Below are positions 1-5,155 of a stretch of DNA of 5,155 nt, piece by piece. This stretch comes from a virus (Duplodnaviria > Heunggongvirae > Uroviricota > Caudoviricetes). Position numbers and translations under genes: made by a program. The stretch is from IMG/VR virus record IMGVR_UViG_2778261499_000005; one strand, 5' to 3'. The stretch's first letter is position 1. Each line of letters opens with the position of its first letter. The notes under the pieces are model-generated. The model was given only the letters and a program-made list of their open reading frames with translations. It was not told where the DNA came from and did not search any database.

Positions 1-187
1 TAAAGTGCATTAGTTCAGATGCAAATTGACATTTTGTGGCACAGGGTAGAGCTAGCGTGGTTGTCCGCTTTGTGCCAGGAGCGGAAGTTGCCAAGAGAAC
101 TCTTGCAAAGGTATGATAACGTAGGTGCTAAATAATCATGAACCATAATAAATTAAAGGTTTTTAAGTTAACTCTATGGCGTTTCTT

Positions 188-216
188 TTGCATGATGATT
201 TTTTATTTATTATATA
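188..216 (+). promoter_or_regulatory. Candidate sigma70 promoter for the AT-rich ORF: TTGCAT (188-193), 17-bp spacer, TATATA (211-216)
   Basis: Hexamers read directly from the sequence with 17-bp spacing; predicted start near 223, about 60 nt upstream of the SD-led ATG at 283. AT-rich DNA gives many chance -10-like hexamers, so this is weak. Confidence 0.3.
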
Positions 217-327
217 AAGCTTAAATATACATAATATTTAGCTTCATTTTTTTAGGTATTTTAAAGATTTAGAGGAATGTGAATGGCTACTTATGCTTCT
301 TATTTACCAGAATAACAAATTATCACT

Positions 328-1626
328 TTGTGCAAGGATTTCCCAGCGTTTACTGATCCTGAAAAATTAGATGGATTCATTAATCCAGAACAGTTTGGCG
401 TGTTTTTTCATGAGTGGATTCATTTTCTTCACAATATTTCCACAATTAATGGGTTTTCTATTTTTTGCACGCAAAACATCCTGTGGTCTAATTTTCGCTG
501 GGCAATGGACAATCAGGATGTATGTCTTGGTTCAAATGACATGGATCCAGCACATATCGAATCAAACAAAAATTTTCTCAGTTACATTCGTTCCAATAGG
601 AGTCTGCATAAATGTAACTTACCTTATTATGTAAAAGTAAACGACTTGTATTTTGAGGATGCAATAATCCATGACATGGAGGTTGCTGACGGTAGTGTTA
701 TATGTACATCATTAATAAAGTGTAGAATTTCTCATTCTGAAAACAAATACGATCTAGATTTAGGCGTGCTTGAAATACTTGAATCCGCAGCTTTTATGCT
801 TGAATGTAAGTGTATTAATGCGATGAATGGCTTCCCTCAAGAGGCACCCTTTTATCCGTATCATACTATCAAGGGCTTAGCAGCGAAAATTGCTCCGTCA
901 TTAAATGATGAAGATATTATTTGTTGTATGTTAGCTTCTTTGCAATCTAATAACCCTCCCCAAGTATTATTCAATCTACTACATAAATGTGAATTATTAC
1001 ATTCTGATTGTAGGTATGAACATCTAGTGGCGGAGGTGAAAAAACAATTAAGCGAACAAGATCAAATAATAAGCGAGTCACTTAATCAAATAATTCAAAT
1101 GATTCCTGTTGATGAACCGATGGGAAACTTTATCAAGCTTACTCTTAACAGAATAAGTAACAATTTGAACTATAGAAAGCAAAAACCGTTTTTTGAGTTA
1201 GATATAATAAAAAAAATAGCAGAAAAAACTGAGTTTATGAATGAAGTAATACAGAAATTCGGTGGTTGCACTATCATCCAGGTAAGACATGGAGATGATA
1301 ATGAACCACAGCGTGATATTATGTATGACTTTTGCTTACCTGAAAATAATGATTCAATTTTATTTGGTTCGAAAATGCTACGCGCTTGTTTTCACTTTAT
1401 ATTTATTCACTTTAAACTTTCTGGTGAAATCATGAAGACAGAAGAATTAAATATTTCGCCGCGTAATAAATGCCCATTTTATACTGTTTGCTGTGCATCA
1501 ATTCGAGCTAATAATAGTAATATCTGCGCTGAATCCCCTTGGAAATCAATGTCTATTGATGACAACAAAGGTTGTTATTATGCAGCAGCGATTAAAGCTA
1601 CTAACCCACCAGTTTTGCCGGATTAA
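328..1626 (+). CDS. Hypothetical 432-aa protein of unknown function; HEWIHFLH (HExxHxxH) at residues 28-35, about 20 Cys; candidate horizontally acquired prophage cargo
   Basis: 1299-nt uninterrupted frame in stop-rich, roughly 30% GC DNA. The start is uncertain: TTG at 328 has no SD, and an in-frame SD-led ATG at 283 is separated from the ORF by a single TAA at 313-315. No family recognised from memory. Confidence 0.8.
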   Translation: MCKDFPAFTDPEKLDGFINPEQFGVFFHEWIHFLHNISTINGFSIFCTQNILWSNFRWAMDNQDVCLGSNDMDPAHIESNKNFLSYIRSNRSLHKCNLPYYVKVNDLYFEDAIIHDMEVADGSVICTSLIKCRISHSENKYDLDLGVLEILESAAFMLECKCINAMNGFPQEAPFYPYHTIKGLAAKIAPSLNDEDIICCMLASLQSNNPPQVLFNLLHKCELLHSDCRYEHLVAEVKKQLSEQDQIISESLNQIIQMIPVDEPMGNFIKLTLNRISNNLNYRKQKPFFELDIIKKIAEKTEFMNEVIQKFGGCTIIQVRHGDDNEPQRDIMYDFCLPENNDSILFGSKMLRACFHFIFIHFKLSGEIMKTEELNISPRNKCPFYTVCCASIRANNSNICAESPWKSMSIDDNKGCYYAAAIKATNPPVLPD

Positions 1627-1871
1627 GAATAGTGTTCTATCTGATAAATATAAAATATTTAAGGTCAGGTCTGCTTATCGCTCAAAGCGGACTAGAAGGT
1701 TAGCTTGCGTCGGACTTGGCGTATTTAAAGAAGTGCTGGTGGTGACTGGTTGTTGTGTTCCATTTCTACAGAACAAAATCACAGAAACTATACCCAATAG
1801 TTATATTGAATCAATGATGAGACAGCCTCATATTTATCAGGACTGGTGTACGTCCAATACAGGAGGTTGTC

Positions 1872-2796: not shown

Positions 2797-3396
2797 ATGG
2801 CGCATATACAACTGGTCAAACAAACTTCTTCTGGTTTACTTCTCCCGGCGACGCCGGAGAGTTGCGATTTTCTGCATCAAATCAAAATAGGTGAGTGGAT
2901 ACACGCAGACTTTAAGCGTGTGCGTAACTACGCATTCCACAAGCGTTTTTTCAAACTCCTGCAACTGGGATTCGATTACTGGACTCCGGTCGGTGGGGCG
3001 ATCACGCCTCGCGAACGAGAACTGCTGTCTGGTTTCGTTGATTACCTGTGCGAATCAGTTGGTCGGGAACACACGCCAGCCCTGAGTGATGCCGCAGAGC
3101 AATACCTTAACACCGTTGCGACTCGTAGAACCCGGGATACGGCGTTGCTAAAGTCGTTTGAGGCTTTCCGCGAGTGGGTAACCATTCAGGCCGGATTTTA
3201 CACCGAGCATATTTATCCGGACGGTAGCCGTGGGCGTCGGGCAAAATCCATCGCTTTTGCGAATATGGACGAAGTCGAGTTTCAGCAGGTTTATAAATCT
3301 GTACTGAATGTGTTGTGGAACTGGATTCTGTTCCGTAAATTCTCCTCTCAGGAGGAAGTTGAAAATGTGGCCGCACAACTACTGGAGTTTGCGTAA
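2797..3396 (+). CDS. Prophage protein of unknown function, 199 aa (DUF1367-like, from memory)
   Basis: 600-nt ORF at about 50% GC; its stop overlaps the next gene's ATG (TAATG at 3394-3398). A roughly 200-aa protein directly upstream of a DUF1364 gene and Q matches the arrangement I recall in lambdoid prophages. Confidence 0.8.
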   Translation: MAHIQLVKQTSSGLLLPATPESCDFLHQIKIGEWIHADFKRVRNYAFHKRFFKLLQLGFDYWTPVGGAITPRERELLSGFVDYLCESVGREHTPALSDAAEQYLNTVATRRTRDTALLKSFEAFREWVTIQAGFYTEHIYPDGSRGRRAKSIAFANMDEVEFQQVYKSVLNVLWNWILFRKFSSQEEVENVAAQLLEFA

Positions 3397-3686
3397 TGGT
3401 GAATTTACGTAAAGCGGCTAAAGGCCAGATGTGCCAGATCAGAATCCCTGGCTACTGCAATCACAATCCCGAAACCTCTGTGCTGGCGCATTACAGGCTG
3501 GCGGGGACGTGCGGAACAGCGACAAAACCACACGATATGCAGGCGGCGATAGCCTGTAGCTCATGCCACGATCTAATCGACGGGCGGGTAAAAACCAGCG
3601 ATTACACCAAAGAAGAATTGCGCCTGATGCATGCTGAAGGGGTTTTTCGCACACAAGAAATCTGGAGAAAGAAAGGTCATTTATGA
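3396..3686 (+). CDS. DUF1364 family prophage protein, 96 aa (YbcO-like)
   Basis: Translation MVNLRKAAKGQMCQIRIPGYCNHNPETSVLAH... resembles E. coli DLP12 YbcO (96 aa) in length, Cys pattern and the CQxRIPG motif. GGAG (3384-3387) lies 8 nt upstream; ATGA overlap with the Q start at 3683-3686. Confidence 0.85.
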   Translation: MVNLRKAAKGQMCQIRIPGYCNHNPETSVLAHYRLAGTCGTATKPHDMQAAIACSSCHDLIDGRVKTSDYTKEELRLMHAEGVFRTQEIWRKKGHL

Positions 3687-4225
3687 TTTACCCAACGAAT
3701 ACAGGAAAAAGCGGAGAACACCTTCGCCTCACCACGCTGGAAAGTGTCTGGATTCAGGGAAAACTACGTATGTGGGGGCGCTGGTCGTATATTGGCGGTG
3801 GCAGGTCAGGGAATATGTTCAATCAGTTGTTGGCATCCAAAAAACTGACGAAAACAGCCATTAATGAAGCCCTGCGCAGAATGAAAAAAGCGGGAATAGA
3901 GAAAGCTGAGCTGGAAGCGTTTTTGCGAGAGATGATCAACGGCAAGCAAAAGAGCTGGCTGGCGCATTGTACTGATGCAGAGGCGTTATGTATTGATCGA
4001 GTCATAAGTGAGGTGCTGGCAGAGCATCCAGGATTGATTTGCATTCTCCGGCAACGCTATGAAGGGCGGGGGATGACTAAGCGCAAAATGGCTGAATTGC
4101 TAAATGATGCACACCCAGAGTGGTGTTTTAGCACATGCGAAAAACGGATTGCTAATTGGTTAGCTGTTGCTGAGTATGCCCTATATATTCCCATGCGTGA
4201 ATCATTTGCTGAGAAAATGGCTTGA
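3683..4225 (+). CDS. Antitermination protein Q-like late-gene regulator, 180 aa
   Basis: Contains LRMWGRW, resembling the L-x-x-WG-x-W motif I recall in Q-family antiterminators such as QuuD. It is the last gene of the DUF1367-DUF1364 operon and is followed within about 80 nt by an intrinsic terminator. AAAGG (3672-3676) lies 6 nt upstream of ATG. Confidence 0.65.
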   Translation: MIYPTNTGKSGEHLRLTTLESVWIQGKLRMWGRWSYIGGGRSGNMFNQLLASKKLTKTAINEALRRMKKAGIEKAELEAFLREMINGKQKSWLAHCTDAEALCIDRVISEVLAEHPGLICILRQRYEGRGMTKRKMAELLNDAHPEWCFSTCEKRIANWLAVAEYALYIPMRESFAEKMA

Positions 4226-4303
4226 TTTCTTACGTATAAACTGCTTCAATTTTGCTATGCTTCGCAAAGCTGTATCGCGAGGCGGATTGCAGACATGGAC
4301 ATC
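4226..4303 (+). promoter_or_regulatory. Candidate Q-dependent late promoter and Q-utilisation region (position only; hexamers unresolved)
   Basis: Sits between the Q stop and the terminator, where lambdoid phages carry the late promoter and qut site. TATAAA at 4235-4240 is a possible -10, but no well-spaced -35 was found. Confidence 0.25.
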
Positions 4304-4305
4304 GT

Positions 4306-4332
4306 AAAAAAACCGCTTAATGCGGTTTTTTT
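4306..4332 (+). terminator. Symmetric, potentially bidirectional intrinsic terminator (tR-prime-like)
   Basis: aaaaaaa-ccgc-ttaat-gcgg-ttttttt: a 4-bp GC stem (4313-4316 / 4322-4325) with a 5-nt loop, flanked by a 7-A run (4306-4312) and a 7-T run (4326-4332) that extend the stem. Confidence 0.6.
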
Positions 4333-4369
4333 ACGTCAGGAAAGCAGGGGAGAATGCTGCTAGTTGGGC

Positions 4370-4408
4370 AACTGGTCTTTCTGCTCCAAATTATAACAGA
4401 GACCAGTT
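4370..4408. repeat. Perfect 9-bp inverted repeat, aactggtct (4370-4378) / agaccagtt (4400-4408), with a 21-nt spacer
   Basis: Exact reverse complements read from the sequence. An 8-T run follows at 4425-4432. Function unknown: RNA hairpin or protein-binding site. Confidence 0.5.
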
Positions 4409-4652
4409 ATAGTTTCGGTGCTGTGTTTTTTTTACAATATTGTGATAACACATTGCTGGCGGGAGTTTTGATATTTCTTGGCAGGGGCTGATGATGCGTT
4501 ATCCTGATGTCGTCAACTCATATAAAATGAGATGAGAGATCATTGCAGGGTGGTTTGTAATTCGCTGTTTAGCGGGACAATATGTTGTCTGATACAAGAC
4601 ACCCGACGCCTCAGATTACTATAATAAAGACGAAGCATCCTTTGTATTGACC

Positions 4653-4678: not shown

Positions 4679-5029
4679 GGGCTGGTTTATTGTATGCCAA
4701 ATGATTATTAAAAAGGTTGTGTTAATAACAAAATCCGAAATAATATGCCTGCATATTTTTATCTTGCTTATATTCTGCATATTGTGCATAGCAGGCTCAT
4801 CCCTGCAATCAAAACTGTATGATGAGTATTTTTTGTTTTCCTTTTTTCCAGTCATCTGATGATGACCTGCTTCTTTTTAATCCGGATCGACATCAGTTTT
4901 TTAAGATAATTCCTGCGAGTTATATGCATAAATACCACAAACTCCGCATTTTATGTGGTTGGGAGTTGCCGGGCGCGCAGTGAGTTTGCTAAGAAAACTC
5001 CTGCATGGTGAATCCCCCTGTGCGGTGGG

Positions 5030-5068
5030 GTGATACCATTAACCTTTTCTGTCGCCGACAGGTATCAC
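5030..5068. repeat. Perfect 8-bp inverted repeat, gtgatacc (5030-5037) / ggtatcac (5061-5068), with a 23-nt spacer; candidate operator or RNA structure upstream of the gene starting at 5102
   Basis: Exact reverse complements read from the sequence; located 34 nt upstream of the SD-led ATG at 5102. Confidence 0.45.
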
Positions 5069-5101
5069 GAACATTTTGTTCACCGGGAGGCACCCGGCAC
5101 C

Positions 5102-5155
5102 ATGCACTTCAATAGATTCTCTCCACATTATGGATATTCTTTCAGAATATCCCAC
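5102..5155 (+). CDS. Possible 5' end of a gene running off the window (MHFNRFSPHYGYSFRISH...)
   Basis: GGGAGG (5085-5090) lies 11 nt upstream of ATG 5102; the frame stays open to the window edge. Only 18 codons are visible, so this is weak. Confidence 0.25.
   Translation, partial: MHFNRFSPHYGYSFRISH

Follow-up and report, generated by a model that had tools for sequence, protein, structure and literature searches.

An AT-rich single-gene prophage cassette encodes a candidate metal-dependent anti-phage enzyme of a new protein family

Introduction

Does a solitary AT-rich gene in a temperate phage genome encode a protein that defends the host against other phages, and if so, by what chemistry? 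The question is raised by an open reading frame (ORF) at positions 328 to 1626 of a 5,155-nucleotide (nt) stretch of DNA from a tailed phage (Caudoviricetes; IMG/VR record IMGVR_UViG_2778261499_000005), the whole of which is called the window here. An initial annotation, made from the letters alone, described the ORF as an orphan of 432 amino acids (aa) with an HExxHxxH motif and about 20 cysteines and proposed an undescribed defence or abortive-infection gene. In this study the ORF was found to be the remainder of a 447-codon gene that belongs to a large protein family, travels as a single-gene cassette between unrelated prophages and has distant homologs in mobile elements and defence islands. 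The gene product is a credible candidate for a single-gene defence enzyme of a new family, as far as comparison of sequences can tell, and the probability that it is a metal-dependent hydrolase acting in anti-phage defence is put at roughly 0.5. Candidate single-gene defences with a protease-like motif in prophage hotspots are a familiar type of finding; the family and its predicted fold are new.

The gene and its protein family

The gene begins upstream of the ORF described at first. The RefSeq homologs WP_000257039 and WP_073520295 are 447 aa long and their start codon matches an ATG at position 283 of the window, 45 nt further 5' (Table 1). A match to phrog_15354, a family of unknown function in PHROG, was obtained with an E value of 2.8e-263, the first residue of the window ORF corresponding to profile position 16. 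The 15 N-terminal residues in question are conserved in the family, and Y7 and I14 do not vary among the 36 closer homologs. Codon 11 of this longer frame is TAA in the window.

The gene is not an orphan. A word-index search of proteins clustered at 90% identity returned 36 clusters, all named "hypothetical", from Escherichia, Salmonella, Sodalis, Serratia, Enterobacter, Aeromonas and Rheinheimera. An exhaustive profile search of representatives at 50% identity (E <= 1e-3) returned 1029 of them; the E value was 1e-10 or lower for 549 and 1e-30 or lower for 275. With few exceptions, the representatives have a length of 440 to 540 aa and match end to end, which gives the family a uniform architecture. 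Scans of genomes and plasmids added Pseudomonas, Paraburkholderia, Burkholderia, Cupriavidus, Rhodoferax, Azovibrio, Piscinibacter and Phaeobacter; the genome scan with the alignment of closer homologs gave nine loci. The main allele of Escherichia coli is present on 936 contigs. The ratio of nonsynonymous to synonymous substitution rates (dN/dS) was 0.14 to 0.21 against the orthologs of Sodalis, Enterobacter and Aeromonas, showing purifying selection on a truly coding gene, as had been surmised from the 1299-nt frame of 432 uninterrupted codons.

That no known family could be recognised was borne out. The query protein matched nothing in Pfam-A (2025 copy) or NCBIfam 20, phrog_15354 being its sole match, and profiles of 36 and 123 family members retrieved only coiled-coil noise from the sequences of the PDB. 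A second word-index search with a diverse alignment yielded no new or named proteins. The family is, on these searches, conserved, real and unannotated, and it is named "hypothetical" in every source. Two sporadic domain matches were recorded: DUF2934 was found in three family members (best E 4e-8) and is unrelated, and in one member SNaCT12, a short C-terminal domain that is NACHT-associated, was matched marginally (E 7.7e-4).

Invariant residues and putative metal sites

The motif HEWIHFLH, noticed at residues 28-35 of the shorter frame (nt 409-432), is indeed present. From the composition of the protein, 0.029 HExxH and 0.0009 HExxHxxH motifs are expected by chance. The motif alone is weak, if suggestive, evidence; its invariance among homologs is strong evidence. 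Conservation was counted in an alignment of 123 members with 17-61% identity to the query, and residues are given in full-length numbering. H43, E44, E167, Y193, R298, C397, C403, C415 and C431 are kept in all 123 members, and H47, N51, P419 and W420 in 122. Slightly lower counts were obtained for T54 (121), H376 (120), C329 (110) and R408 (110). Both histidines and the catalytic glutamate of HExxH by which peptidases of clan MA are recognised are thus retained essentially throughout the family. The longer HExxHxxH signature did not hold: its last histidine, H50, is kept in only 81 of 123 members and replaced by Gln in 26. The family consensus reads F-x-H-E-Y/W-x-H-Y/F-L-H/Q-N-x-S-T, followed later by G-x-x-x-I-x-E-G/S-x-A-x-x-x-E/D. 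The key motif is therefore HExxH with, about 120 residues further on, an invariant Glu on a separate helix. This resembles the gluzincin arrangement, a likeness that serves as a lead and not as a test. In zincins, the Glu of HExxH serves as the general base and is no metal ligand. The invariant His pair, the non-ligand Glu and the distant Glu, together with the conserved Tyr, Arg and His, argue for a zincin-type catalytic metal site.

The cysteines had likewise been taken as a sign of metal binding. The 20 cysteines and the C-terminal run CPFYTVCC...C...C are present as described, the number being a quirk of the lineage: family members contain 5 to 20 cysteines (median 10), the highest number being that of the E. 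coli protein. Only the set of four invariant cysteines (Cys4), along with C329, is meaningful. These four lie in a compact region, spaced C-x5-C-x11-C-x15-C in the E. coli protein, and argue for a second metal site, which may be structural or redox-sensing.

An AlphaFold2 model calculated from the 36-sequence alignment reached a mean predicted local distance difference test score (pLDDT) of 92.8 and a predicted template modelling score (pTM) of 0.92. Its elements are given in the numbering of the modelled protein P0001, to which 5 is added for full-length positions. The N-terminus is modelled as a short strand, a helical hairpin bearing HExxH (30-48 and 50-67) and a third helix. A five-stranded sheet (118-155), the helix that carries E167 (157-175) and a long all-helical part (190-321) make up the middle, and the C-terminus comprises two short strands, a helix ending at H376 and a knot of short helices around the four cysteines. 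With E167 invariant and placed on a modelled helix, a candidate for the third ligand of a clan MA site is available, at a spacing from HExxH that is atypical. In comparisons of the model with known folds a zincin fold was not detected and no significant gluzincin match was obtained; of the zincin-like signature noticed initially, HExxH was retained. The top domain matches, EfeO/M75 and a Fe(II)-binding effector, are proteins that bind metal and are not catalytic. We read the fold comparison as indicating no solved relative, and a helical metal-site module would be compatible with it.

A single-gene cassette in two kinds of E. coli prophage

The window, E. coli H3 (lambdoid prophage) and APEC O2-211 (P2-like prophage) can be aligned with hardly a mismatch between about 62 and about 1693; beyond these limits the sequences diverge. 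This cassette of about 1.63 kb was found in 13 of 5426 complete E. coli genomes at 99.5-99.9% identity. The GC content of the gene is 0.34 (about 0.30-0.37 along the ORF), compared to 0.48-0.53 in the downstream prophage genes and about 50% in the flanks. Horizontal acquisition, proposed initially from this AT-richness, is corroborated by the presence of the same cassette in two phage backbones that are unrelated to each other. In E. coli, Sodalis, Enterobacter and Aeromonas alike the gene has 34-36% GC between flanks of 50-63%, and the low GC persists although the synonymous divergence of the most distant orthologs is saturated (dS > 2). A GC content that stays low despite such divergence fits long-term circulation on mobile elements. 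Betaproteobacterial members of the family have 40-59% GC.

In P2-like prophages the cassette is flanked by the tail-fibre assembly gene and the tail sheath gene (five copies in complete genomes were inspected), and seven further complete E. coli genomes share the P2-type right boundary. This position is the Z/fun hotspot, in the literature one of the classical variable or defence loci of P2 and described as mixed-purpose. In lambdoid prophages the cassette follows the replication module and lies upstream of hokD (H3, one IMG/VR contig and the window). In strains SW07091 and A11, this lambdoid slot is taken up by AbiH and a hypothetical protein of 463 aa. In SW07091 (locus 4257-6646) the two genes are adjacent on the opposite strand and may form a two-gene defence unit. 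Elsewhere the slot is occupied by BCCT and MFS transporters, DUF2254 or a LysR regulator, and transporters are found there in APEC O2-211.

Upstream of the gene a sigma-70 promoter-like site is present, one of two tied best sites in positions 1-2400 and the better of those on the + strand. The total of sigma-70-like sites in the region equals that of shuffled sequence, and this site is singled out by its consensus match only. The cassette is flanked by an imperfect inverted repeat with arms of 36 nt, 72% complementary, and the core GTCCGCTTTG / CAAAGCGGAC. The hairpins at the two ends have 8-bp stems and are inverted copies of each other; the right-hand one lacks a T-run. They may mark recombination points at which cargo is swapped between phage backbones. 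The idea that they are exceptional as structures was rejected on fold energies within those of shuffles (z -0.7 on the left, -1.2 on the right). In the P2 context the inverted repeat continues into different, P2-specific flank bases (TCTGACAGTCCGCTCTG / CAAAGCAGACTGTCAGA), and a complete hairpin, GTCCGCTTTGTGCCAACAGCGGAC, is present at this left junction in the strain that carries AbiH.

Distant homologs beside defence systems

Whether homologs recur in prophages and defence islands had been suggested as a check, and they do, from the Z/fun hotspot and the AbiH slot to chromosomal islands. The homolog of Cupriavidus pampae adjoins Shedu SduA (2.9e-171), and that on C. necator plasmid pENH92 has a Gabija-like ATPase/helicase pair and a gene for a dsDNA nuclease as neighbours. 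In Paraburkholderia the homolog is found between an OLD/GajA-like ATPase and an E1-E2/JAB protein. The Rhodoferax homolog has an HNH gene and pPIWI-RE/DinG nearby; a Mks/Wadjet-type condensin set (Pfam MukB, MksE and MukF), seen in a pooled scan of neighbours, probably belongs to this locus. PDC-S71 and PDC-S39 are encoded near homologs in a Pseudomonas and in a betaproteobacterial metagenome-assembled genome. The Sodalis homolog is next to ApeA-HEPN inside an element with a type IV secretion system, and in Enterobacter the homolog lies downstream of a reverse transcriptase, an SMC-like ATPase and insertion sequence elements. The Rheinheimera homolog is the first cargo gene of a Tn7-like element, that of P. 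migulae resides in an integrase island, and a B. glumae conjugative plasmid carries its homolog beside recombinases and a MazEF pair. As a raw count over about 18 independent contexts, at least 8 have a known or candidate defence system no more than 6 kb away, and the remainder consist mostly of mobile-element cargo. By this tally, location in defence islands and mobile-element hotspots is recurrent.

A two-gene system was considered and rejected. The small ORFs upstream of distant homologs and the upstream ORFs of 200-250 aa at four loci are mutually unrelated by BLASTP, and no neighbouring ORF is conserved among the loci compared.

The copy in the window

The TAA at codon 11 stands in place of the TCA of H3 and APEC O2-211. 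TCA is present in all ten copies compared with the window (six complete genomes and four IMG/VR contigs). A C-to-A change at 314 is the only base difference from the APEC O2-211 allele in the 1341 nt preceding the stop codon. The frame from 328 to 1626 is, to judge from this alignment, what was left open after a very recent nonsense mutation, or after a sequencing error. Re-initiation at TTG 328, 12 nt past the stop, is conceivable and at best weak; it would drop the 15 conserved N-terminal residues and with them the conserved N-terminal strand, and no Shine-Dalgarno sequence precedes this codon. Because of the nonsense codon at position 11, the window copy is probably non-functional, a fresh and inactive pseudogene.

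Three of the 14 E. coli copies seen are disrupted, namely the window and two with split coding sequences, one of them confirmed by translation. In avian E. coli MS1679 (locus 3134-4476) the P2-borne gene is split into 311 and 129 aa by a frameshift, which translation confirmed, and in avian E. coli GPEC1054 the P2-borne gene is annotated as two hypothetical proteins. The 129-aa family phrog_36473 matches residues 304-432 only and would fit a C-terminal fragment; such fragments are perhaps frequent enough in databases to have seeded it.

Table 1. Positions of the gene, its cassette and the conserved sites in the window.
Feature	Position	Strand	Remarks
ORF of the initial annotation	328..1626	+	Uninterrupted, 432 codons; TTG start is Leu16 of the full protein (ORF listing)
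Full gene	283..1626	+	447 codons and stop; broken at codon 11
Shine-Dalgarno-like AGAGGA	271..276	+	6 nt 5' of ATG 283; read from the sequence
Premature stop TAA	313..315	+	A314 where other copies have C (Ser11, TCA); alignment
HEWIH codons (H43-E44-x-x-H47)	409..423	+	H43 and E44 in 123/123 members, H47 in 122/123
E167 codon, candidate third metal ligand	781..783	+	123/123 members; helix after the beta-sheet
Cys4 module (C397, C403, C415, C431) with R408 and P419-W420	1471..1575	+	Cys in 123/123 members; modelled short helices
Single-gene cassette (promoter region, gene, 3' hairpin)	62..1693	+	Common to lambdoid and P2-like prophages
Left boundary hairpin, inverted-repeat arm	50..85	.	Repeat search
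Right boundary hairpin, second inverted-repeat arm	1670..1705	.	Repeat search
Sigma-70 promoter-like site (TTGCCA, 18 nt, TATGAT)	88..117	+	10/12 consensus matches

Discussion

The product of the intact gene (283-1626 in the window) is predicted to be a soluble protein of about 447 aa, most likely a metal-dependent hydrolase and probably a zinc endopeptidase. H43, H47 and E167 would hold the metal and E44 would act as the general base, with possible contributions of Y193, R298 and H376 to the active site. The separate Cys4 site (C397, C403, C415, C431) might bind a structural zinc or an iron-sulphur (Fe-S) cluster. Because the gene forms a stand-alone cassette with its own promoter-like site and is found in repeated defence hotspots and islands, immunity would be conferred by this one protein. 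The cassette is envisaged to move among the cargo slots that mobile elements offer and, most plausibly, to act as an anti-phage defence made of one protein. Expressed in the lysogen, the protein might be a latent protease that is set off when a rival phage is sensed and then cleaves either a phage protein or an essential factor of the host. The logic would be that of a Lit-like abortive infection, by analogy. The most far-reaching form of this proposal is tentative and, taken as a whole, doubtful. It holds that the protein is a previously unrecognised metallopeptidase of a new fold and a new MEROPS-level family, defined by HExxH...E and a Cys4 site that is possibly Fe-S, and that it constitutes a new one-protein abortive-infection system, spread as a self-contained cassette across P2-like and lambdoid prophages, Tn7-like transposons, conjugative elements and defence islands of Alpha-, Beta- and Gammaproteobacteria.

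Several results weigh against a defence enzyme. Two Aeromonas loci, Azovibrio and a metagenome contig provide neutral contexts, and residency in the lambdoid slot does not by itself imply defence because the slot also carries transporters. The disruption of three of 14 E. coli copies fits a costly gene and a dispensable one alike. Among the 5027 models of PADLOC v2.0.0, a search suggested along with the initial annotation, not a single family was matched by the query at E <= 10. When 101 diverse members were compared with Pfam at E <= 0.01 and E <= 5, neither a recurrent family nor a peptidase match emerged. The spacer of about 120 residues between HExxH and Glu is long for a gluzincin. A tblastn search of 50,697 sequenced phage records gave no match, and WP_000257039 and its relatives are not mentioned in the literature searched, including the supplements of Rousset 2022 and of DefensePredictor. 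A literature search on HEXXH or zincin proteins in anti-phage roles returned nothing relevant.

The alternative that deserves most attention, unlikely as it seems, is a non-immune accessory ("moron") enzyme, i.e. a hydrolase or regulatory protease that alters host physiology (stress, metabolism, toxin-antitoxin) and has no role in phage resistance. The transporters and regulators that occupy the lambdoid slot would suit it, as would the Aeromonas copies, which adjoin trp and efflux genes with no defence neighbours. Physiological prophage proteases exist, LfgB being a reported example. Such an enzyme would hardly be expected to have defence systems within 6 kb in so large a share of its contexts, with mostly mobile-element cargo in the rest, nor to occupy the P2 Z/fun slot as well. 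A further possibility, which we regard as improbable, concerns the chemistry: HExxH...E and Cys4 could be structural or sensing metal sites of a protein that is no enzyme and that might still serve defence as a decoy, a sensor or a membrane-independent blocker. The invariance of E44, which is not a ligand, is hard to explain for a purely structural site, and Y193, R298 and H376 are invariant or nearly so; the failure to detect a zincin fold and the metal-binding, non-catalytic character of EfeO/M75 and the Fe(II)-binding effector are what speaks for it.

The same enzyme chemistry might also serve the mobile element itself, in anti-defence or in competition between elements, for instance by proteolytic removal of an immune protein of the host or of the repressor of a rival element. 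Carriage by prophages, Tn7-like elements, conjugative elements and plasmids would accord with this, and phage hotspots, the mixed-purpose Z/fun among them, hold counter-defence genes too. Many homologs reside, however, in chromosomal islands among bona fide defence systems and away from phage early regions, the protein is large and its promoter-like site has a lysogen-expressed orientation, and no match was obtained in 50,697 sequenced phage genomes; a role on behalf of the element is a rather poor bet. By far the least probable explanation is a tail or other virion accessory protein, to which only the position between tail-fibre assembly and tail sheath genes in P2-like prophages points. The same cassette is found in the early or nin region of lambdoid prophages, homologs occur on Tn7-like and conjugative elements, plasmids and chromosomal islands without virion genes, and the foreign GC content, the promoter-like site and the known non-essential nature of the Z/fun locus are also at odds with it. 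The tail-gene reading was rejected on this genomic context.

Among characterised systems, the defence enzyme proposed here invites comparison with Lit of prophage e14 (MEROPS U49), a protease that cuts EF-Tu in response to the Gol peptide of phage T4 and so aborts the infection. Both are single prophage-borne genes with HExxH, a functional analogy only. Homology was rejected: hhalign with the 123-member profile gave a probability of 0.1% (E 0.49) over 29 columns off the motif, and the caution exercised on this point in the initial annotation was right. Lit has 297 aa compared to 447 aa for the cassette protein and, to our knowledge, no Cys4 module. From the gluzincins of MEROPS clan MA(E) (thermolysin M4, M1, M32), to which no significant sequence or fold match was obtained, the cassette protein differs in that the beta-sheet follows the HExxH helix instead of preceding it, in the length of the spacer to Glu and in the extra Cys4 module.

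The cassette occupies the Z/fun slot and is comparable to the cargo of the P2 Z/fun and old/tin hotspots (Fun/Z, Old, Tin and, as reported from P2 hotspots, PD-T4-9/CmdTAC and DprA-PRTase). The P2 defences are reported to be swappable and to be found in other mobile elements too, as is the cassette; its protein has no sequence relation to any of these systems, without a PADLOC match to them. AbiH of SW07091 and A11 is comparable as AT-rich accessory cargo in the same slot upstream of hokD, although it is an unrelated protein on the opposite strand, and no Pfam model, those of AbiH included, matches the cassette family. The PDC families of PADLOC offer the likeness of an uncharacterised single gene recurring in defence islands, with PDC-S71 and PDC-S39 as actual neighbours of homologs; the cassette family itself is absent from the PADLOC models.

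If an intact allele protects, a defence family of more than 1000 representative clusters would be added that current annotation tools miss entirely. If the chemistry holds true, the confident predicted structure without a solved relative would represent a new structural class of HExxH enzyme. Single-protein systems, with sensor, trigger and target in one chain, are the easiest to dissect mechanistically, and Lit is, as far as we know, still among very few defence proteases with a known target. The near-identical cassette in two unrelated temperate-phage backbones is a clean example of cargo movement, and the short inverted end hairpins may bear on how cargo is exchanged at hotspots.

Other features of the window

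Coverage of the window stays below 80% in every complete genome. Downstream of the cassette, a complete hok/sok type I toxin-antitoxin locus is found at 2004-2328, with sok (Rfam RF01794) at 2004-2178 (116 bits) and a Hok/Gef ORF (PF01848, 1.6e-23) within 2116-2328; the gene is hokD in the RefSeq annotation of matching genomes. In the region upstream of hokD, an unannotated ORF of 47 codons (1816-1957, + strand) would encode a very cysteine-rich peptide, MMRQPHIYQDWCTSNTGGCRAGSQMCASYCGCNGNLLSCCCSYGSPF. Its region is present in 2145 of 5426 E. coli genomes with no annotated feature in the 12 records listed, and it may be non-coding hok leader sequence. The lambdoid nin-region genes further downstream are intact and comprise DUF1367 (2797-3396), the putative nuclease YbcO/DUF1364 (3396-3686) and DUF1133 with a weak match to Q antiterminators (3683-4225). 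These genes are 99.8% identical to those of many E. coli Rac/Qin-like prophages. Downstream of the DUF1133/Q-like gene, an Rfam match to the gammaproteobacterial small RNA STnc100 (RF02076, 81.5 bits) was obtained at 4973-5155, cut by the window end.

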